Source: Armatimonadota bacterium | GTDB lineage: Bacteria; Armatimonadota; UBA10988 | DNA: 28,018 nt | Direction of reading: 5' to 3' | NCBI GenBank assembly: GCA_016235455.1 | Contig: JACRKZ010000122.1 | Coordinates: 1 to 28,018 of the forward strand | Shown: positions 980 to 27,467 of the stretch, in pieces | How the letters are laid out: each line of letters opens with the position of its first letter | Numbering within the stretch: the first letter of the stretch is position 1 | Translations under genes and position numbers: made by a program | The notes under the pieces: model-generated | Database searches by the model: none | Told to the model about the DNA's origin: nothing | What the model saw: the letters and a program-made list of their open reading frames with translations, nothing else

Positions 980-1936
980 ATGCTCAATGACGACCGCTAC
1001 CTCTCGATGACCTTCCAGCGCCCGGCGCGCATCCCGGTCTCGGTGGGCATCCTGCCGGCGGCCTGGATGCGCTATCGCGAGGAGCTCGACCACCTGTGCG
1101 CCGAGCACCCCCGGCTGTTTGGCAACCACCGGGCGGGCCAGCGCGACTACGACGCCGTGGGCGGCACCTATGTCATGGGCCGGCACATCGACGCGTGGGG
1201 CTGCGTGTGGGACAACGTGCAGCATGGCTGCGAGTCGATTGTCACCGGCCATCCCGTACCGACGCGCGCGGACGTCTGGAAGCTGCAGCCGCCCAAGCCT
1301 GGCGCCGGCCTGCCCCATGGCTTCATGTGGCTGCGGCTGGGCGACCTGCGCGGGTTCGAGGAGCTGATGTGCGATTTCGGCGAAGAGTCGCCCGAACTGG
1401 GGCACCTGCTGGACATCGTGCGCGACTACAACGTGGCGGAGATGGCGCGCATCTGTGAGGGCTACTCGCACTGGATGATCTACGTCGGCGACGACCTGGG
1501 CATGCAGACCGCGCTACCCATCAGCCCGCGCCAGTGGCGGCAGTACCTCAAGCCCTGCTACGAGCGGATCTACGCCATCCCCAAGGCCAAGGGGCTGAAG
1601 GTGTACATGCACACCGATGGCCACATCCTGCCGATCATCCCCGACCTGGTCGACGCCGGCGTGGACGTGGTCAACCCGCAGGTGCGCGCCAACGGGCTGG
1701 CCGGGCTGCGTGAGGTGTGCTTCGGCCGGGTCTGCGTCGACCTCGACCTCGACCGACAGCTCTTCCCCTTCTGCACGCCCCAAGACATCGACGACCATGT
1801 GCGCGAGAGCGTGGAGACGCTGGGCAGCCCCGAAGGCGGGTTGTGGCTCAAGGCCGAGATCGGGCCCGATGTGCCGCTGGCCAACTGCGAGGCTATCTTC
1901 GTGGCGCTGGAGACGTATCAGGACTGGTTCGCCTGA
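980..1936 (+). CDS. URO-D/methyltransferase-like family protein
   Basis: 318 aa; DAWGCVW, LRGFEEL, GDDLGMQ..ISP, YMHTDG, DLDRQ motifs; 2 nt after the upstream stop (operon). Confidence 0.85.
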   Translation: MLNDDRYLSMTFQRPARIPVSVGILPAAWMRYREELDHLCAEHPRLFGNHRAGQRDYDAVGGTYVMGRHIDAWGCVWDNVQHGCESIVTGHPVPTRADVWKLQPPKPGAGLPHGFMWLRLGDLRGFEELMCDFGEESPELGHLLDIVRDYNVAEMARICEGYSHWMIYVGDDLGMQTALPISPRQWRQYLKPCYERIYAIPKAKGLKVYMHTDGHILPIIPDLVDAGVDVVNPQVRANGLAGLREVCFGRVCVDLDLDRQLFPFCTPQDIDDHVRESVETLGSPEGGLWLKAEIGPDVPLANCEAIFVALETYQDWFA

Positions 1937-2015: not shown

Positions 2016-3665
2016 TCAGCGCTCCAACCCGCACTTGGGGTTGGCCGGATCATCCAGCCGCGGCCGCGCGATGGGCTCCCCGTCGGGCAGGCCGCAGGTA
2101 AAGCGCCAGGTGGCCACCTTGTTCTTGCCGCCGCTGACCACCGTCATCGTCGCGGTGTAGGTCTCGTGTTCCTTCAGCGGCGCCAACGGCACCAGCACCG
2201 CGGTGGCGCCGCCTTTGGGCGGGCCCTGCAGGCTGCAGGCGACGGGTTGCTTGAGGCGATCGACCAGCGTGGCCGCGGCCACCAGGTCGATGCCGGTGGG
2301 CACGGTCAGCGACACTGGGCAGCCATACGGCCGGGGCTGGTCGGCCGGCACCAGGGCGGGCTCCTCCAGGCCATTCCACGTGCCGGGCACGCCGGCGGCG
2401 TTGTCGGCCGGGTAGACGGCGGCATCCGGCAAGCGCGACTTGTTGGGCAGCGCGCCGGTGACCACCACGCAGACCGGCGTCTGCCCCGACGCCACGCCGA
2501 CTCCTACCGCCGTGGCGCGTGGGTCGGCCAGCGCCATGCGCTGACGCACCGTCTGCCAGAGACCGTCGACAGCGCGCACGCCATCGGTGTAGCCGTGGCT
2601 GGCTTCGCTCAGGAACTGGCCGCCAAAGCCGGCCACGCGCTCGCGCGCCGCTTGTGCCGCGGGCGCTGTCGGCGCCAGACCGGCCAGATACTCCGCCTGG
2701 GCTTGCGCGGCGCGCATGAGCTCGGGCGAGGTCGCCGGCGCCGGCAGCATGAGGGCGCGGCGGTACTGGCAGAGGCGCAGGTAGGCCATCTGGCGCTCGT
2801 AGTCCTGGGCCGCCACCTCGGCCCGTCGGCGCAGCTCGGGCGTGGCCGGCTGCGCGCCGCGCACCACCACGGTCAGCGCGCCGCTGCGCTCGTGACCCTC
2901 ATACTGCCCGACCGCCGGCCGGAACTGGACCAGCCCGCTCTGCTTGGCACGCACCACGCGCTGCCCGCCCACCTGCTGCCACTCACCAACGCCAAAGCCG
3001 GGGCCGCCGAAGCGCACCATCAGCCGGCCCCAGGCGACGCCATCGGCGATGCGCCGGCGCAAGTCACCGTCGGGCCCGAGCAACTGGCCATCGGCATACA
3101 TGCGCCACTGGCCAAACGCGTCGAAGCGCACTTCCTGGCCGGCCTCCACGTACAGATCGGCGATCGTTCCGTCGCCGGCGGCCGGCACCTGCACTTGAGC
3201 GCCCTTGGCGGCCAGTTCGGCAATCACCTGGCCCTCGGGCCGGCCACCGCGGATGGTGACCTTCAGCTCGCCGTCGCCTTCGGTCATGCCCACAGCGCCG
3301 AGGTTGGGATACAGCACCAGCGCGCCGGAGGCGTCGGCGGTCAACGTGCGGCCGGTGCCCACGGAGAACTCGCCGCCACCGCCTATGCGCGCCATCAGGC
3401 AGCCCCACCCGTACAGCCCGACGCGGTAGCGATGGCCGATGGCGTTGGACCGGCCGAAGTGACCGGCCCACATGGTCCACTCGCCCTCTACGGCAAAGGA
3501 CAGCGACTCGCCGCGCGCCAGCCACAGCCCGGTCTCCAGGCGCTGGCTCTTGGCGGGGAAGATCAGCGTCACGGCTGGGCCAGCGGGCTCCGCGCCAACC
3601 GACATCACCGGCCCGCGCGCACCCACCAACGACAGCATCAGAGCAAACAGAGTGGCAGCCGACAC
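2016..3665 (-). CDS. Secreted protein: two lectin (LecA/PA-IL)-like beta-sandwich repeats + CAP/SCP domain + Ig-like C-terminal domain
   Basis: 549 aa from GTG with GGGAGA SD; signal peptide; repeats G(E/Q)x(L/V)xF..GxWxM...WGxLMxR(I/F)GG; CAP-like ELMRAAQAQAEYL...W..VRQR..LADP.ATAVGVG; PLAPLK..ETY Ig-like tail. Confidence 0.7.
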   Translation of the reverse strand: MSAATLFALMLSLVGARGPVMSVGAEPAGPAVTLIFPAKSQRLETGLWLARGESLSFAVEGEWTMWAGHFGRSNAIGHRYRVGLYGWGCLMARIGGGGEFSVGTGRTLTADASGALVLYPNLGAVGMTEGDGELKVTIRGGRPEGQVIAELAAKGAQVQVPAAGDGTIADLYVEAGQEVRFDAFGQWRMYADGQLLGPDGDLRRRIADGVAWGRLMVRFGGPGFGVGEWQQVGGQRVVRAKQSGLVQFRPAVGQYEGHERSGALTVVVRGAQPATPELRRRAEVAAQDYERQMAYLRLCQYRRALMLPAPATSPELMRAAQAQAEYLAGLAPTAPAAQAARERVAGFGGQFLSEASHGYTDGVRAVDGLWQTVRQRMALADPRATAVGVGVASGQTPVCVVVTGALPNKSRLPDAAVYPADNAAGVPGTWNGLEEPALVPADQPRPYGCPVSLTVPTGIDLVAAATLVDRLKQPVACSLQGPPKGGATAVLVPLAPLKEHETYTATMTVVSGGKNKVATWRFTCGLPDGEPIARPRLDDPANPKCGLER

Positions 3666-3752: not shown

Positions 3753-3781
3753 TTGACCCTGGCCGACTCCCTTTCTAAGAT
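3753..3781 (+). promoter_or_regulatory. Sigma70-type promoter of the corrinoid/MtaA-like/kinase operon
   Basis: TTGACC (3753-3758), 17 nt, TAAGAT (3776-3781); the ORF-track TTG start at 3753 is this -35 box. Confidence 0.65.
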
Positions 3782-3830
3782 AGCCCTGGGTCCAGCCGCT
3801 ACCGCCGCCACCGCCAGTACCGAGGGCTCT

Positions 3831-4478
3831 ATGCCACACAGGTCCGACCAGGAAGACATTGCGTCGATCAGGGCCGCGCTCCTTGGGGCCGACTACGTCA
3901 CCGCCTTGGCGTTGCTGCGTCGCGACGGCGATGGTTCAGGGCTGCTGGCGCGCATCGAGCAACAGGTGGTGCCCGCGCTGGACGACATCGGCGACGCCTG
4001 GGGCCGGGGCGAAGTGTCGCTGGCCGAGGTTTACATCAGCGGGCGGCTGTGCGAGCGACTGATCGACGATGTGCTGCGCGAGGCCAATGTGTCGCGGCGC
4101 GCGCAGCCCAAGATGGCCATTGCTGCGCTCGATGACTACCACCTGCTTGGCAAGCGTTTGGTCCATGCCTCGCTGCGTGCGGCCGGCTACGAGGTCGCGG
4201 ACCATGGCCGCGGCACCGCCGAGGAGATTGTGCGGCGCGCGGCCGACGAAGAGATCGAGGTGTTGCTGATCTCGGTGCTGATGCTGCCCTCGGCGCTGCG
4301 CGTGGCCGAGGTGCGCAGCGGCCTCGCGCAGCGTGGCCTGCCGACCAAGGTGGTGGTCGGTGGCGCGCCGTTCCGCCTCGATCCGGACCTGTGGCGGCAG
4401 GTGGGCGCCGATGCCAGTGGTCCCACGGCGGCATGCGCCGTGTCGCTGGTCGACACCGTCTGGAAGTCCTCGCCATGA
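3831..4478 (+). CDS. Cobalamin (B12)-binding corrinoid protein (MtbC/MttC-like)
   Basis: ATG 3831 with GAGGG SD; cap domain VVPALDDIGDAWGRGEVSLAEVY; DxHxxG = DYHLLG (His codon 4140-4142), SxL = ISVLM, VVVGGAPF. Confidence 0.9.
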   Translation: MPHRSDQEDIASIRAALLGADYVTALALLRRDGDGSGLLARIEQQVVPALDDIGDAWGRGEVSLAEVYISGRLCERLIDDVLREANVSRRAQPKMAIAALDDYHLLGKRLVHASLRAAGYEVADHGRGTAEEIVRRAADEEIEVLLISVLMLPSALRVAEVRSGLAQRGLPTKVVVGGAPFRLDPDLWRQVGADASGPTAACAVSLVDTVWKSSP

Positions 4479-5521
4479 CCTCCATCGAGCGCGTTCTGAC
4501 CACGCTGGGGCACAATGAACCCGATCGGGTGCCGCTGTTTCTGCTCTTGAGCATGCATGGCGCCAAGGAGCTCGGCCTCTCGATACGCGACTACTTCGCG
4601 CGGCCAGAGCATGTGGTCGAAGGCCAGCTGCGGCTCCGCGAGCGCTACGGACACGACTGCTACTACCTTTTCCACCATGCGCCGTTGGAGGCCCAGGCAT
4701 GGGGCGGTGAGGTCGTCTTCGTCGAGGACGGTCCACCCAACTCGGGCGAGCCGCCACTCACGCGCGCCGAGCAAATCGACCACCTGGAGCTCCCGGTCGT
4801 GGCCGACTGTGCCGCGTTGACGGGTGTGCTGGCAGCGACGTCCGCGCTCAAGTCGCGGGCCGGCGACGAGGTGCCGCTGATCGGCGTCGTCATGTCGCCG
4901 TTCTCACTGCCCGTCATGCAACTCGGCTTTGAGCTGTACCTGCAGGTCCTCCTGGAACAGCCCGAGCGCTTCGCACGACTGATGGCGCTGAACGAGGCGT
5001 TCTGCGTCGAGTGGGCCAACGCGCAGTTGCGCGCAGGCGCCACGGCCATCTGCTACTTCGATCCGGTGGCCTCGCCGACCATCGTGCCACCGACCACCTA
5101 CCGCGCGTTGGGCCAGCCCGTGGCACGGCATACGCTGTCGCGCATCGAGGGCCCGACTGCCACGCACCTGGCCTCGGGTCGCGCGCTGCCCATCGTCGAT
5201 GACCTGGCCTCCACCGGCACCGCCATCATCGGCGTAGGCCACGACGAGCCGCTGGCGGCGCTCAAGGCGGCAGCGCACGGTAAGGTGAGCCTGCTCGGCA
5301 ACCTGAACGGGGTGGCCATGTGCCGCTGGACGGGCGAGCAGGCCGAGGCCGAGGTGAAGCGCGCCATCGGTGCCGCCGGGCCGGGCGGCGGCTTCATCTT
5401 GGCCGAGGGGCACGGCGAAGTGCCGTGGCAAGTGACCGACGACACACTGCTCGCCGTCGCCGACGCGGCCCGGCGTTGGGGCGCCTACCCGCTGAGTTGG
5501 GTCGGTGACCATGGACCGTGA
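4475..5521 (+). CDS. URO-D/MtaA-CmuA-like (methylcobalamin methyltransferase fold) protein
   Basis: ATGA overlap with the upstream stop; MTSIERV...EPDRVP start, SPFSL, GATAICYFDPVAS, LLGNLNG, GGGFIL. Confidence 0.88.
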   Translation: MTSIERVLTTLGHNEPDRVPLFLLLSMHGAKELGLSIRDYFARPEHVVEGQLRLRERYGHDCYYLFHHAPLEAQAWGGEVVFVEDGPPNSGEPPLTRAEQIDHLELPVVADCAALTGVLAATSALKSRAGDEVPLIGVVMSPFSLPVMQLGFELYLQVLLEQPERFARLMALNEAFCVEWANAQLRAGATAICYFDPVASPTIVPPTTYRALGQPVARHTLSRIEGPTATHLASGRALPIVDDLASTGTAIIGVGHDEPLAALKAAAHGKVSLLGNLNGVAMCRWTGEQAEAEVKRAIGAAGPGGGFILAEGHGEVPWQVTDDTLLAVADAARRWGAYPLSWVGDHGP

Positions 5522-8066
5522 CGTCGAGATCGTCGTCTGCGAGACGCTGCGGCGCGAGGTCGTCGCCGCCCTGCGGGCCGAAGGGCTCGACGATGTGACG
5601 GTGACCACGCGCGAAGCCTCCTGCGGGCGCGCGGCTCAGGCCGATGGGGCGGCCTTCCACTCACTGAGCGGCGCGGCTCGCCTGGTGCTGCTGGGCGGCG
5701 CGTGTTGCCGAGGCATCAGCGACACGATGGCGCCCTCGGTGACACGGATTCCCGGTGTCGGCGGTTGTTGCGCCGAACTGCTGCTGCCCGGCGCTCTGGT
5801 GGACCACCTGACTCGCTCCGGCGCCTACCTGGCGACGCCGGGCTGGCTGGCCGGCTGGGAGCGACGGCTGGCCGAATGGGGCTTCGACCAGGCCACGGCG
5901 CGTGCCCTCTTCGGCGAGAGCTGCCAGCGCCTGGTCCTGCTGGACACCGGCTTGGACCCGGACGCGCCGGCGCGGCTGATCGAGATGGCCGCTTACGTCG
6001 ACCGGCCGTGCGAGCTGCTGCCCGTGGGGCTCGACCTGCTCCGCGCCTATCTGGCCAAGGAAGTGTACGCCCAGCGCGCGGCCCGGCCGGAGCCCAGCGG
6101 GCCCGCCGTGCAGCCGGCGCGCTCGCTGGCCGACGCCGCCTTCGTGCTCGATGTCGTCGGCCGGCTGGCGGAGCTGACCACCGAACGCGAGGTCGCGGAC
6201 CGAGTGTTCGAGCTGGTGGAGATGCTCTTCGCCTCGCGCCGGCTGGCCTACCTGCCATGGCGTGACGGGACCTGGCAGGAGCCCGTCTGGCGGCCAGCGC
6301 CGCCCACCGACGCGGCCGAGGCCCGCCGTGCCATGGTGGCGGCGGCGGACTCCGTCTTGCGCACCGCCTGCGGCGCCGGCTTCGCCATGCCCATCCGCGC
6401 CGACCGCGACCTGGTGGGGGTACTGCTCGTGGACGGGGTGGCCTTGCCGGACCACCTGGACGACTACCTCAATCTGGCCCTGCACATGGCGCCCATGTTG
6501 GCCATGGCGCTGACCAACGCGCGCCGCTATGAGCAGATGGTCGAAGAGCGCGCCCGCTACCGGCTGGCACGGTTCACACTCGATACCGTGTCGGAGCTCG
6601 CCCTCTGGCTGAGCCCCGACGGGCGTATCGTCGACGCTAACGAGGCCGCCTGCGCGGCCCTGGGCTACCGCCGCGACGACCTGCTCGGCACGGCCATGGC
6701 GGGCGTGGACCACAGCTTCGAACCCGACATGGCGCGCGATGTGTGGCACAGAGCCCGGCACGGCGATCGCTCCACCTGGCTGACCACCTTCCGCACGCAC
6801 ACGGGCGGGTCGCTCCCGGTCGAGGTATCGACGCGCATCGTCGAGCATGGCGGCGGCGCACTGCTGTGCGTGCTGGCGCGCGACGTTGCCGAACGGCTGC
6901 GCGCCGAGGCGCTTGGCCGCCAGCTGGACCAGCGGCTGCGCCAGGCGCGGCAGGCAGCCAGCCTCGGTGCCCTGGCGGGCGGGCTGGCCCACGAGTTCAA
7001 CAACCTGCTGGCCACCGTCATGGCCGAGGCCGAACTGGCGCTCGGCGAGCCGGCGGACGCAGAGGCCGGACTCGGCGTCATCATCGGCAGTGCCCAGCGC
7101 GGTGCCGAGCTCTGCCAGATGATGCTGGCCTGCGCGGGTCGAGCGCCGTTCTCGCTACAGCCCACCAACCTGACCGAGGTGGCGAACGCTGCCCTGCGGG
7201 ACATCCGCGCCGGGCTGCCCGAGCAGGTCGCCATAACAGTGGAATGCGCGGATGCCGTACTGCTCGTGCAGGGCGACGCGTCGCAGTTGCGTGGCGTGGT
7301 CGCCGGCCTGCTGCACAACGCGGTCGAGGCCATCGGGGAGGCCAGCGGCGAAGTGGCCCTGGAGTTGCGCGTCGCCTGGCGTGAATCCGGCCAACTGGGT
7401 ACGGACCAGGCGGGCCGCCCGCTGCCGGCCGGCACCTACGTGCTGCTGACCGTACGCGACACCGGCCACGGCATGGACCGCGAGACCGCCGAAAGGGCAT
7501 TCGACCCGTTCTTCACCACCCGCTTCGCCGGTCGCGGCCTGGGGCTGGCCGCTGTGCTGGGCATGGTCTGGTCGCACCATGGGTCGATCACCCTTGACAC
7601 CGAGCCCGGCCGCGGCACCACCGTGACTGTGGCGCTGCCCGCGCTGGCCCAGCCAGCGGCGGAGACGACCGCGGCTGCTTCGCGGTATGAACCAGGCGGG
7701 CTGGTGCTGCTGGCCGACGACGAGGGCAGTGTCCGACGGGTCTCGACGCGCGTTCTGTCGCGCCTGGGGTTTGAGGTGGTCGCCGCCGCCGGCGGTGAAG
7801 AGGCGATCCGCCTCTTTGGCGACCATGCCGAGCGCATTCGCGCGGTCGTGCTCGACGTGATGATGCCGGGTGTGAGCGGTGCCGACGCTCTGGCGGGCAT
7901 GAGGCGAGTGCGGCCTGACCTGCCAGCCGTGCTGATGAGTGGGCACAGCGATGTCGACCTGAAGGCCGCCGGCGTGGCAGGCACGCCGACGGCCTTCCTC
8001 ACCAAGCCGTTCTCCCAGGCCCGCCTGCGTGATGCCCTGGCCGGTCTGCTCAGCGAGCCAGACTAG
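5511..8066 (+). CDS. Hybrid sensor histidine kinase: DUF1638-like + GAF-like + PAS + HisKA + HATPase_c + receiver
   Basis: ATG 5511 (alt GTG 5505) overlaps upstream gene; N-terminal C..L / GGAC / CCAELLL / YLATPGWLAGW / VLLDTG (DUF1638-like); PAS IVDANEAACAALGY..DDLLG; H-box LAHEFNNLL; N/G1/F/G2 boxes HNAVEA, DTGHG, FDPFFTT, GRGLGL; REC LADDE, LDVMMP, MSG, TKPF. Confidence 0.9.
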   Translation: MDRDVEIVVCETLRREVVAALRAEGLDDVTVTTREASCGRAAQADGAAFHSLSGAARLVLLGGACCRGISDTMAPSVTRIPGVGGCCAELLLPGALVDHLTRSGAYLATPGWLAGWERRLAEWGFDQATARALFGESCQRLVLLDTGLDPDAPARLIEMAAYVDRPCELLPVGLDLLRAYLAKEVYAQRAARPEPSGPAVQPARSLADAAFVLDVVGRLAELTTEREVADRVFELVEMLFASRRLAYLPWRDGTWQEPVWRPAPPTDAAEARRAMVAAADSVLRTACGAGFAMPIRADRDLVGVLLVDGVALPDHLDDYLNLALHMAPMLAMALTNARRYEQMVEERARYRLARFTLDTVSELALWLSPDGRIVDANEAACAALGYRRDDLLGTAMAGVDHSFEPDMARDVWHRARHGDRSTWLTTFRTHTGGSLPVEVSTRIVEHGGGALLCVLARDVAERLRAEALGRQLDQRLRQARQAASLGALAGGLAHEFNNLLATVMAEAELALGEPADAEAGLGVIIGSAQRGAELCQMMLACAGRAPFSLQPTNLTEVANAALRDIRAGLPEQVAITVECADAVLLVQGDASQLRGVVAGLLHNAVEAIGEASGEVALELRVAWRESGQLGTDQAGRPLPAGTYVLLTVRDTGHGMDRETAERAFDPFFTTRFAGRGLGLAAVLGMVWSHHGSITLDTEPGRGTTVTVALPALAQPAAETTAAASRYEPGGLVLLADDEGSVRRVSTRVLSRLGFEVVAAAGGEEAIRLFGDHAERIRAVVLDVMMPGVSGADALAGMRRVRPDLPAVLMSGHSDVDLKAAGVAGTPTAFLTKPFSQARLRDALAGLLSEPD

Positions 8067-14137: not shown

Positions 14138-14749
14138 ATGCTCGACCAGCCCGTAACCGACTTCCTGGCCCAGCTCGGGTCCGCCGCGCCGACGCCCGGT
14201 GGCGGCAGTGTGGCCGCGCTGACCGGCGCGCAGGCCGCCGCGCTGGTGGCCATGGTCTGCCATCTGACCATCGGCAAGAAGCGCTACGCCGAGCATGAGG
14301 ACGACCTGCGCGCCGTGCTGGCCCAGGCCGAGGCGCTCCAGGCCGAGTTGACCGAGCTGGTCGCCGCCGACATGGCCGCCTATGAGCAGTTGTCGGGCGC
14401 CTACAAAATCCCCCGCGACGACCCGGCGCGGGCCGACGCGCTGGCGGCCGCGCTGGTGCCGGCCACCGAGGTGCCGCTGGCCATCGCCGAGGCCAGCGCG
14501 CGCGTGCTCGAACTCGTGCCCACCGTGGTCGAGAAGGGCAGCGTGGTGGCGGTCTCCGACGCTGGCATGGCCGCGCTGCTGGCCGCGGCGGCGGTGCGCT
14601 CGGGCGCGCTGAACGTGCTCATCAACCTCGGCGCATATCAGGACGACGAGGCGACCGCCGGCTACCGCGCGCGGCTGAACAAGGTCCTCGGCGAGCCGCT
14701 GAGCCAGGCCGACGCGCTGTACGCGGATGTGGTCAAAAGGATTGGCTGA
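14138..14749 (+). CDS. fchA: Cyclodeaminase/cyclohydrolase family protein (FTCD_C; methenyl-THF cyclohydrolase-like)
   Basis: AAGGAG SD; FLAQLGSAAPTPGGGSVAAL, LVAMVCHLTIGKKRY, D..AY, ATEVPL, SDAG, LNVLINL. Confidence 0.9.
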   Translation: MLDQPVTDFLAQLGSAAPTPGGGSVAALTGAQAAALVAMVCHLTIGKKRYAEHEDDLRAVLAQAEALQAELTELVAADMAAYEQLSGAYKIPRDDPARADALAAALVPATEVPLAIAEASARVLELVPTVVEKGSVVAVSDAGMAALLAAAAVRSGALNVLINLGAYQDDEATAGYRARLNKVLGEPLSQADALYADVVKRIG

Positions 14750-25946: not shown

Positions 25947-27467
25947 ATGGCGCGACCGGTGCGACAGGGAACGGCGTACTTGGTGGGTGCGGGCCCCGGC
26001 GATCCGGGTCTGTTGACGGTGCGCGGACGCGAGATCCTGGTGGCCGCGGACGCGGTCATCTATGACCGACTGGCCAACCCGACGCTGCTCGGTCTGGCCC
26101 GGCCCGACGCCGTGCTGATCGATGTCGGCAAGACGCCCGGCCGCCACGCCATGACTCAGGAAGAGATCAACGCGGCCATTGTCGAGCAGGCCAGGCTCGG
26201 CCGCAGCGTCTGCCGGCTCAAGGGCGGCGACCCGTTCGTCTTCGGCCGCGGCGGCGAGGAAGCGCTGGAGTGCCTCGCGGCGAGCGTGCCGTTCGAGATC
26301 GTGCCGGGCGTCACCTCGTCCATCGCCGCGGCGGCCTACGCCGGCATTCCCGTCACGCACCGCAACGTGGCCACGTCGTTCGCCGTGATCACCGGCCATG
26401 AGAACCCCGACAAGCCCGAGACGCAGGTGGACTGGGCTGGCATCGCCCATGGCGCCGACACGCTGGTCTTCCTCATGGGAATCGGCAATCTGGCCGAGAT
26501 CACCGCGCAACTGATCCGGCATGGTCGCGCCGCCGACACGCCGGTGGCCGTGGTGCAGTGGGGCACCTGGACCCGCCAGCGCGTGGTCGAAGGCACGCTG
26601 TCCACCATCGCGCAGCTTGTCGCCGACAGCGGACTCAAGCCGCCGGCGGTGACCATTGTCGGAGCCGTGGCCGCGCTACGCGAGCGGCTGGCGTGGTGGG
26701 ACCGCAAGCCTTTGTTCGGTCGGCGCGTGGTGGTTACGCGGTCGCGTACGCAGGCCTCCGACCTGACCGACCTGCTCACCGATGTCGGTGCCGAGGCCAT
26801 CGAGCTGCCGGTCATCGCCATCGCCGCGCGCGACGTGGCCGAGGCCGTCGGCCGGCTCGTGGCGGCCGGCCTGCCGCATGACTGGGTGGTTTTCGCCAGC
26901 AGCAACGCCGTGGACCTGTTCTTCGCCGCGCTGGCCGCCGCGGGCGCCGACGCCCGCCTGCTCGCCGGCAGCAAGGTCGGCGCGGTAGGCGCTTCCACCG
27001 CCGAGGCACTGGCCCGGCATGGTCTGCGCGCGGATTTCGTGCCGACGAGCTTCAGCGGCGAGGATTTCGCCAAGCAGGTGGGCTCGCCCGAGGGCCTGCG
27101 ATTCCTCTTCCCCGGCGCGGCGGCAGCCAGTGACGACATGCCGCGCGAACTGCGCGCGCGGGGTGCCGAGGTGGAGCTGCTGCCGCTGTACGACACCGTA
27201 CCCGACCCCAGCGACGGCGCCGCCGTGGCGCGGCGCTTCGCCGATGGCGAAGTGGACGCGGTGACCTTCACGTCATCGAGCACGGTGCGGCTGTTCCGCG
27301 AATTGCTGCCCGACGTGGACCTGAGCGGCATCTGCCTGGCGGCCATCGGCCCGCGCACGGCGGACACCATGCGCGAACTGGGCCTGGAGCCGACGGTTGT
27401 GGCGGCCACCAGCCGGCTCAGCGCGCTGGTCGAGGCGCTGAGCGACTGGTGGCAACCGGCGGGCTGA
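25947..27467 (+). CDS. cobA: Uroporphyrinogen-III C-methyltransferase / uroporphyrinogen-III synthase fusion (CobA-HemD)
   Basis: GGAG SD; YLVGAGPGDPGLLT, RLKGGDPFVFGRGGEE, VPGVTS, AGIPVTHR; HemD part VVVTR, FASSNAV, LYDT, FTSSST, IGPRTA. Confidence 0.95.
   Translation: MARPVRQGTAYLVGAGPGDPGLLTVRGREILVAADAVIYDRLANPTLLGLARPDAVLIDVGKTPGRHAMTQEEINAAIVEQARLGRSVCRLKGGDPFVFGRGGEEALECLAASVPFEIVPGVTSSIAAAAYAGIPVTHRNVATSFAVITGHENPDKPETQVDWAGIAHGADTLVFLMGIGNLAEITAQLIRHGRAADTPVAVVQWGTWTRQRVVEGTLSTIAQLVADSGLKPPAVTIVGAVAALRERLAWWDRKPLFGRRVVVTRSRTQASDLTDLLTDVGAEAIELPVIAIAARDVAEAVGRLVAAGLPHDWVVFASSNAVDLFFAALAAAGADARLLAGSKVGAVGASTAEALARHGLRADFVPTSFSGEDFAKQVGSPEGLRFLFPGAAAASDDMPRELRARGAEVELLPLYDTVPDPSDGAAVARRFADGEVDAVTFTSSSTVRLFRELLPDVDLSGICLAAIGPRTADTMRELGLEPTVVAATSRLSALVEALSDWWQPAG

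Follow-up and report, generated by a model that had tools for sequence, protein, structure and literature searches.

Pairs formed by a corrinoid protein and a partner enzyme normally serve C1 metabolism, and the B12-based regulation known so far relies either on riboswitches or on single B12-binding regulators such as CarH, which respond to light or to B12; AerR is a further regulator built on a cobalamin-binding domain. The DNA studied here is a 28,018-nt stretch (hereafter, the window) that makes up the entire contig C74 of a 6.5-Mb draft genome of an Armatimonadota bacterium, with ∼70% G+C. It contains, between positions 3753 and 8066, a cassette of three overlapping genes encoding a corrinoid protein, a protein with the uroporphyrinogen decarboxylase (URO-D) fold and a soluble hybrid histidine kinase headed by a DUF1638 and a GAF domain. 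Its nearest counterpart among described systems would be an MtaC/MtaA pair with a GAF-type sensor kinase attached.

As in MtaC/MtaA, a small two-domain corrinoid protein with the DxHxxG...SxL...GG motif is encoded beside a URO-D-fold partner. However, the cassette shows neither the zinc cysteines of MtaA nor a nearby substrate-specific methyltransferase (MT1) of the MtaB/MttB type or RamA, its model scores are low (for instance, 100 versus 244 bits), and its pair is always followed by a signaling protein. Three-component systems, composed of MT1, a corrinoid protein, a second methyltransferase (MT2) and an activase, have MT1 and RamA/RACo in the cluster, whereas these were found neither in the window nor among the 68 close neighbors of homologous cassettes described below.

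Stand-alone DUF1638 proteins of ∼200 to 250 amino acids (aa), such as PGA1_c13340 of Phaeobacter inhibens and SPO2162 of Ruegeria pomeroyi, are presented as accessory proteins of metabolic enzymes in two reports (PMC5764234; PMC12478193). According to the first of them, genetic evidence shows DUF1638 to be needed alongside a split methionine synthase, it is found together with a RamA-like protein, and the authors make no specific proposal for its role (PMC5764234); in the second, reductive recharging is "predicted" for it in the context of glycine betaine demethylation (PMC12478193). The DUF1638 domain of the cassette belongs to the same family (PF07796), is likewise associated with a B12 protein and shares three cysteines with the stand-alone paralogues of its own genome, but it is fused to a GAF domain and signaling outputs and has a fourth conserved cysteine.

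CarH and LitR resemble the cassette in that a B12-binding domain serves regulation instead of catalysis. Nevertheless, they work as a single protein, or as one plus an antirepressor, on DNA-binding partners and in response to light or B12 binding, whereas in the cassette the corrinoid protein stands apart and is accompanied by an enzyme-like partner and a DUF1638-GAF reader, and the Glu-His (EH) signature is lacking. For their part, GAF-input kinases and cyclases (KdpD, 4y2f; NifA/Nlh1) also place a GAF fold directly before the signaling helix, and tetrapyrrole-binding GAF domains are known in phytochromes and DosS. Unlike that of the GAF-input kinases, the GAF domain of the cassette is missed by the Pfam GAF models, has motifs of its own and is found exclusively downstream of the corrinoid/URO-D pair.

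Searches of openly licensed full text in PMC and bioRxiv gave no account of the cassette, or of any kinase coupled to DUF1638 or to a corrinoid protein, and the closest papers retrieved (PMC13602510; bioRxiv 10.1101/2025.05.05.652248) concern other systems. The first-pass annotation of the window, made from the sequence alone, knew of no characterized example, without excluding one. As far as the searchable literature shows, the cassette is undescribed and unlike any characterized B12-based regulator.

Conservation of the three-gene cassette

The + strand of the region holds three open reading frames (ORFs), at 3753 to 4478, 4475 to 5521 (inside a longer ORF, 4391 to 5521) and 5505 to 8066. 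The stop codon of the corrinoid gene and the start codon of the URO-D gene share the ATGA at 4475 to 4478, and the kinase start (ATG at 5511 or GTG at 5505) overlaps the URO-D gene, whose stop codon is the TGA at 5519 to 5521, so that the overlapping start and stop codons reported in the first-pass annotation are borne out. The promoter candidate proposed there, TTGACC-N17-TAAGAT, is present at 3753 to 3781 (+) and is the sole sigma-70-like site between 3400 and 8500 (1 found versus 0.2 expected from shuffled sequences), as a consensus match only. Since the TTG at 3753 belongs to the −35 hexamer, the corrinoid gene most likely starts at the ATG at 3831.

In a collection of 5.8 billion proteins, the first 345 residues of the kinase had 22 relatives of similar length, aligned over 85 to 99%, whose outputs were HisKA/HATPase (in some cases with REC or Hpt), GGDEF or HWE kinases. 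A profile of this head matched 1073 cluster representatives (50% identity) at an E value of ≤1e-30 among 1.84 billion; in the best 150 matches the head was always N-terminal, in proteins of 359 to 1479 aa. A survey of species genomes based on the head confirmed 85 relatives, from which 80 loci in >10 phyla were kept. ORFs were called in these loci and then searched with the three proteins of the window, and the 73 loci with >2100 nt upstream of the head were considered assessable. The corrinoid and URO-D genes were found upstream of the head, on the same strand, in 70 of the 73, with L046, L079 and L116 as exceptions. Both were immediately adjacent to the head in 69 loci, while in L091 the URO-D gene is part of a tandem cassette. 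The overlap between the URO-D stop and the head start is usually up to 16 nt, the same as in the window.

A second survey, based on the URO-D protein, detected relatives in at least 562 species genomes. From these, 78 new loci were fetched (6 of them on contigs of the head-based survey) and searched with hidden Markov models of DUF1638, the GAF part, the corrinoid protein and URO-D. Among the 74 loci with at least 300 nt downstream, the URO-D gene was followed by a fused DUF1638 and GAF in 59, by the two domains as separate ORFs in 1, by GAF only in 11 and by DUF1638 only in 3, 2 of which were ended by a contig edge. No locus lacked both domains (0/74), and the corrinoid gene lay upstream of URO-D in 76 of 77 assessable loci. 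The linkage of the three genes is far above chance. Given that DUF1638, GAF or both lie downstream in 74/74 loci, this URO-D clade, which comprises at least 3784 clusters at an E value of ≤1e-40, is dedicated to the cassette. A natural 576-aa fusion of B12-binding domains with the URO-D protein (P0101) was also found, which favors a physical coupling of the two.

The 11 GAF-only loci belong to Desulfobacterales (including Desulfocicer vacuolatum DSM 3385) and to one Thermodesulfovibrio. Their URO-D gene is followed directly by the same GAF domain, which leads into a CxxC...CxxC tail, a kinase or a PAS-kinase. To judge from these sequences, GAF and not DUF1638 appears to be the constant reader of the cassette. 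DUF1638 is encoded elsewhere in 4 of the 5 genomes with GAF-only cassettes that were checked, so that it may act in trans in them. The first-pass annotation had taken DUF1638 as the input end of the kinase; it does stand at the N terminus, but it is neither the sole nor an obligatory input.

The output joined to this head changes from locus to locus. In the 80 head proteins of the head-based survey, the output was a HATPase_c kinase in 43 (many with PAS, REC or Hpt), GGDEF in 12 (one also with EAL), SpoIIE/PP2C in 1, a conserved tail with the pattern PICxxCKKIRDDxGYW...HS..FSHGxCPxC in 12, and a coiled coil only in 2; 2 were DUF1638-only split forms, 7 were ended by a contig edge and 1 was unclear. 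None of the 80 carried a methyl-accepting chemotaxis protein (MCP) output. Thus, the conserved trio with swappable outputs suggested in the first-pass annotation was found for kinases and GGDEF, and also for GGDEF-EAL, PP2C and the CxxC tail, but not for MCP. The tail, of ∼60 aa and C-terminal, contains two CxxC pairs, has no Pfam match and stands in many short heads as the sole "output"; short heads of 400 to 440 aa had no recurrent gene downstream. The tail occurs in L044, L045, L051, L054, L055, L075, L084, L099, L100, L109, L112 and L113, and also in L137, L140, L142, L155, L166, L169, L187 and L190.

The genes lying close to the cassettes (68 on the same strand at ≤350 nt, 30 upstream and 38 downstream) included 28 signaling proteins, namely REC-kinases, hybrid kinases, GGDEF proteins, CheB, PP2C and single receivers. 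None of the 68 encoded MtaB, MttB, MtrH, a pterin-binding methyltransferase or RACo, in agreement with the absence of an adjacent substrate-specific methyltransferase or RamA-like activator noted earlier for the window. Only two were related to B12 or cobalt, a CbiM cobalt-uptake gene after the L117 cassette and a B12-radical SAM gene before that of L081. A constant head, interchangeable outputs and signaling neighbors form the pattern of a sensory input module, not of a catabolic pathway; a sensory role for the cassette is therefore strongly supported at the level of gene content and order.

The proteins of the cassette

The corrinoid protein (3831 to 4478, +; 215 aa) consists of a cap domain and a Rossmann B12 domain, with Pfam matches to B12-binding (PF02310; E value, 7.6e-18) and B12-binding_2 (PF02607; E value, 1.6e-6). 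The motif residues D102-x-H104-x-x-G107, S148-x-L150 and G177-G178 are invariant in 68/68 orthologues, and the protein is therefore expected to carry a His-on (base-off) cobamide. Its domains and motif place it with the methyltransferase-cognate corrinoid proteins of the MtaC/MtbC/MtgC type, and the identity given to it in the first-pass annotation is well founded. The named NCBIfam corrinoid models (MtaC, MtbC, MtgC and pyl_corrinoid) scored far below their cutoffs, the best being TIGR02370 (56.4 versus 215.3 bits).

The second gene product (4475 to 5521, +; 348 aa) matches the full length of the Pfam URO-D model (E value, 8.4e-55), and its nearest solved structure is that of MtaA (4ay7; E value, 1.7e-12). 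It is 46 to 66% identical to 71 orthologues across phyla, with a mean column identity of 69% and 38 invariant columns, R6, R18, D61, Y155, S200, K264, H313 and E315 among the invariant residues. With this degree of conservation, the protein probably acts as an enzyme on a single substrate common to the whole clade. In the source databases, members of the clade bear the automatic names "uroporphyrinogen decarboxylase (family protein)" and "MtbA." The best NCBIfam matches are the MtaA and MtbA models, all below cutoff (PRK06252, 100 versus 244; MtaA_Meth, 97.7 versus 400; TIGR01463, 89.3 versus 235.4). Hence, "MtaA-like," as the protein was first called, holds for the fold and for the closest structure, but not for the zinc cysteines or the family cutoffs. 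The genome has 43 URO-D-family matches in total, an unusual expansion.

Two identities were tried and rejected for this protein. The catalytic Asp of HemE lies in an FSD motif; in the alignment with 4zr8 the "sd" of "lfsdil" stands opposite "hh" of the query, and the HemE model TIGR01464 scored 58.4 versus 302.95. For the zinc-thiol MT2 family of MtaA, MtbA and CmuA, the URO-D fold is present, but the zinc site is not and the NCBIfam cutoffs were not reached. Without zinc cysteines and with scores below cutoff, the protein falls outside both the zinc-thiol MT2 family and HemE.

The third gene (5511 to 8066, +, from the ATG; alternatively from the GTG at 5505) encodes a kinase with the domain order DUF1638, GAF, PAS, HisKA, HATPase and REC. 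The PAS domain (6567 to 6896, +) was matched by Pfam PAS_9/PAS_4/PAS at residues 355 to 464 counted from GTG 5505, and HATPase_c (E value, 2.6e-18) and the receiver (Response_reg; E value, 2.5e-18) are above cutoff. The kinase core spans 6966 to 7643 (+); its HisKA part is weak, with 18.8 bits versus a cutoff of 26.9, but the H-box LAHEFNN is present. The REC domain (7704 to 8039, +) has the DD...D...K residues of receivers, with the acceptor Asp in the context VLDVMMPG. These features identify a hybrid histidine kinase, and the maximum 19-residue Kyte-Doolittle mean, 1.31, indicates that it has no transmembrane segment. The complete soluble HisKA-HATPase-REC kinase of the first-pass annotation is thus confirmed, with HisKA itself below the Pfam cutoff.

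The N terminus of the kinase matches DUF1638, as had been anticipated (PF07796; E value, 2.6e-8; 34.3 bits versus a gathering cutoff of 27), and DUF1638 was detected at an E value of ≤1e-4 in 78 of the 80 homologous heads, L091 and L111 being the exceptions. An AlphaFold model of residues 1 to 343, built on a 72-sequence alignment, reached a predicted local distance difference test (pLDDT) value of 89.1. It shows an alpha/beta domain at residues 1 to 195, which is DUF1638 (5511 to 6095, +), followed by a second domain at residues 203 to 343 (6117 to 6539, +) that was missed earlier. Foldseek related the latter to the GAF domains of KdpD (4y2f; target TM-score, 0.71) and Nlh1 (4g3k; 0.68). No Pfam GAF model matched this stretch, here or in homologous heads, and the GAF fold is a prediction of the model. 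The domain is recognizable by the motifs ADYAMxxDLL ... YLNLA ... NAR.

The DUF1638 domain contains a GAYLxTPGWL motif and four conserved cysteines: Cys10 (72/72), Cys38 (70/72), Cys65 (59/72) and Cys87 (66/72). Cys10, Cys65 and Cys87 are shared with the three other DUF1638 paralogues of the genome, whereas Cys38 is specific to the sensor heads. In the predicted model, with a pLDDT of 89.6 for this domain and dips to 66 to 79 around residues 40 to 90, where the cysteines lie, the four are placed at the C-terminal ends of consecutive beta-strands, and a metal or Fe-S site there is plausible. With DUF1638 alone, Foldseek gave a best TM-score of ≤0.47, with two-lobed alpha/beta proteins (PBP, LacI and PrpR-like), and a wide VIA-align search gave Z values at background level, the best being 8.7 (Toprim 2i5r; 94 residues; root mean square deviation, 2.8) and 8.3 (creatinine amidohydrolase 3lub). 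Judging from the model, no solved relative of DUF1638 can be named, which does not imply a novel fold.

Proposed reading of the cobalt state and its alternatives

On balance, we favor the view that the cassette is a cytoplasmic cobamide-based sensory module that reads the state of cobalt. A methyltransferase module repurposed as a cytoplasmic sensor, as put forward in the first-pass annotation, is the best reading. Its sensory part agrees with the conserved linkage, the swappable outputs and the lack of metabolic neighbors, whereas the URO-D protein, with no MtaA zinc cysteines, may not be a methyltransferase. In this scheme, the small corrinoid protein would hold a His-on cobamide. The URO-D-fold protein would dock on it, by analogy with MtaA on MtaC, and would set or alter the cobalt state, as methyl-Co(III), Co(I) or Co(II). 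The DUF1638-GAF head, chiefly through GAF, would bind the corrinoid protein or the corrinoid/URO-D pair according to that state, and the change would be relayed through the helical linker after GAF to PAS-HisKA-HATPase-REC and onward into a phosphorelay.

Our best guess for the signal is the methylation or redox state of cobalt, and the two likeliest external cues would be a methyl donor and a redox or oxygen cue at very low potential. By the titles of their records, many carriers come from oxic-anoxic interfaces (Desulfobacterota, Geobacterales, Anaerolineae, Thiomargarita, Parabeggiatoa, Methylobacter, Magnetococcales and Thiocapsa), so that the module might sense oxygen or redox conditions close to the Co(II)/Co(I) potential. 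A more specific version, which we offer tentatively and with somewhat less than even confidence, is that a zinc-free URO-D enzyme methylates or demethylates a Co(I)/methyl-Co(III) corrinoid, and that DUF1638-GAF reads its extreme responsiveness to oxidation, from Co(I) to Co(II), or to the supply of methyl donor and passes the result to two-component, cyclic di-GMP or PP2C signaling.

Several observations weigh against reading the cassette as a sensor of the cobalt state. The zinc site of MtaA-type enzymes, with the ligand set His-x-Cys ... Cys, activates the thiol. In the URO-D protein of the window, the HiCG of MtaA is aligned with THLASG and its GCG with GHG, so that both zinc cysteines are replaced. 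Across the 72 orthologues there is no Cys column at ≥90%, while His231 is present in 63/72 and His313 in 72/72. The protein may thus not be a thiol methyltransferase, or not a methyltransferase at all. DUF1638, being missing from 11/74 cassettes, is not a universal reader, and its score in the window kinase is modest. Pfam searches of the window found no Hpt protein, response regulator, MT1 or activase, which leaves the kinase with no cognate Hpt or response regulator there. No activase adjoins the cassette, although a Co(I) cycle would need one; the only RACo/RamA gene of the genome lies on another contig. No RNA run was listed as containing positions 3753 to 8066, the listed DNA runs being groundwater and freshwater metagenomes. 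Finally, the predicted complex of the corrinoid protein with the head scored 0.36 versus 0.00 for the best of 3 controls, which supports an interaction, though weakly. Of the benchmark pairs, 58 of the 80 solved complexes passed the mark, as did 2 of the 110 mismatched ones; passing scores of ≤0.60 came from only 7 of those 80 and from both of these mismatches. Contact agreement was ≥71% and partner pLDDT ≥78 in our runs, which used our own alignments, so that the benchmark counts hold roughly.

The corrinoid and URO-D proteins could also serve a sensor of cobamide availability, in which the head would tell the apo from the holo form of the corrinoid protein and URO-D would load or hold the cofactor with no methyl transfer. 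The strict conservation of the B12 ligands, the URO-D protein without a thiol-activating zinc site, the binding of tetrapyrroles by the URO-D fold of HemE and MtaA, and the CbiM and B12-radical SAM genes next to two cassettes would fit this explanation. We regard it as unlikely, however: those two genes are all that is B12 or cobalt related among the 68 neighbors, an Rfam scan of the whole window gave nothing at gathering score and hence no cobalamin riboswitch, and a mean column identity of 69% points to an enzyme acting on a defined substrate more than to a chaperone. A similarly low probability is given to a DUF1638-GAF head that senses by itself, through a Cys-ligated metal or Fe-S redox cue or a ligand in the GAF pocket, with the corrinoid/URO-D pair as enzymes outside the sensor, either regulated by it or simply co-expressed. 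The cysteines kept in heads and paralogues, and the head-specific Cys38, speak for it; GAF domains commonly bind small ligands, and the pLDDT dip at residues 40 to 90 would resemble cofactor-dependent loops. Nevertheless, a regulator and its target need no fixed order with overlapping codons over >10 phyla amid changing outputs, no locus of the 74 has the URO-D clade without a head domain, and an enzyme pair without a substrate-specific methyltransferase has no obvious metabolic role.

The lack of such a methyltransferase, and of RACo, among all 68 neighbors also makes it very improbable that the cassette belongs to an ordinary corrinoid methyl-transfer pathway, with a DUF1638 reactivation helper fused to its regulatory kinase, as does the repeated swapping of outputs behind a constant head. 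This explanation draws on the work of stand-alone DUF1638 with metabolic corrinoid enzymes, as seen in two reports (PMC5764234; PMC12478193), and on the URO-D expansion of the genome, two members of which lie 1.8 to 3.7 kb upstream. These two ORFs, overlooked in the first-pass annotation, are in tandem at 84 to 977 and 980 to 1936 (+) and cover only the C-terminal half of the Pfam URO-D model. A gene on the − strand intervenes between them and the trio, and in none of the 80 homologous loci was a URO-D match found on the + strand ahead of the corrinoid gene, the single extra match (in L052) being on the − strand. Least probable of all is a B12-based light sensor, in which photolysis of an alkyl-cobamide on the corrinoid protein would be read by the head. 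B12-binding domains do serve as photoreceptors, CarH having W131, E141, H142 and H177 as key residues (PMC11796333), and phototrophs such as Oscillochloris trichoides, Candidatus Viridilinea and Thiocapsa marina are among the carriers. The CarH-type GxxW is kept (G54 and W57 in 68/68 orthologues), but the E141-H142 pair, 10 and 11 residues past the Trp, is replaced by Val (58/68) and Tyr (67/68), so that the adenosylcobalamin signature is absent; the NCBIfam CarH model gave 42.3 bits versus a cutoff of 400, and most carriers are, by the titles of their records, anaerobes of sediment or groundwater. The B12 photolysis raised as an option in the first-pass annotation is thus disfavored, and a module reading the methylation or redox state of cobalt is preferred.

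Genomic surroundings and biological meaning

The remaining genes of the window are of housekeeping and cell wall types (lysS, PBP1, an amidase and an M23 peptidase). A 549-aa ORF at 2016 to 3665 (−), in which a CAP (cysteine-rich secretory protein) domain was found along with a weak match of the biotin-lipoyl type, separates the upstream URO-D ORFs from the cassette, and a 704-aa + strand ORF that overlaps it has no Pfam match. An FTCD_C cyclodeaminase-like C1-folate gene lies at 14138 to 14749 (+), ∼6 kb from the cassette, and a CobA-HemD fusion (tetrapyrrole methylase plus uroporphyrinogen-III synthase) at 25947 to 27467 (+), ∼18 kb from it.

Elsewhere in the genome, contig C61 (15034 to 19596, −; L033) carries a distant split cassette with overlapping gene ends, in the order corrinoid protein, URO-D, stand-alone DUF1638 and a GAF-GAF-HisKA-HATPase-REC kinase. 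Its URO-D and corrinoid proteins are each 34% identical to those of the window (E values, 1e-30 and 1e-15, respectively); homology between the GAF domains of its kinase and the dedicated head GAF was not shown by BLASTP (E value, 0.88) or hhalign (probability, 0.3). On contig C97 (22132 to 23700, +; L034, 8132 to 9700), a fusion joins DUF1638 with a hydantoinase_A_N/MutL-like ASKHA ATPase domain, which hints that DUF1638 may work with ATP-dependent corrinoid reactivation. This fusion recalls the ATP-dependent activases that co-occur with DUF1638 according to one report (PMC5764234). Contig C158 (26470 to 31122, −; L035) encodes a REC-PAS-HisKA protein without a HATPase_c match and then a stand-alone DUF1638, a xylose-isomerase-like TIM barrel, an Rrf2 regulator and a radical SAM/DUF3463 protein. 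Contig C169 (54275 to 56415, −; L036) encodes a corrinoid protein and, after it, a URO-D protein that carries a fused thioredoxin_3 domain; DUF1638 is absent there. In other species, the genomes of L149, L137 and L190 contain strong DUF1638 matches (E values, 1e-41 to 1e-43) in open frames of ∼950 aa, which suggests another DUF1638 fusion protein.

The cassette shows a corrinoid-protein/enzyme pair wired before kinases, cyclases and phosphatases in at least 562 species genomes and ∼1073 clusters. Its cultured carriers, which make it testable, include Geomonas spp., Desulfocicer vacuolatum DSM 3385, Thiocapsa marina 5811, Oscillochloris trichoides DG6, Dethiosulfatarculus sandiegensis and Desulfatitalea alkaliphila. 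If the proposed reading is true, the Co-C bond or the redox state of cobalt would be a new cofactor chemistry in bacterial signal perception, and a function would be given to DUF1638 and to a large clade of "uroporphyrinogen decarboxylase family protein" members. It would also open a way to study how methyl donors or very low redox potentials are perceived by anaerobes and by organisms living in gradients.

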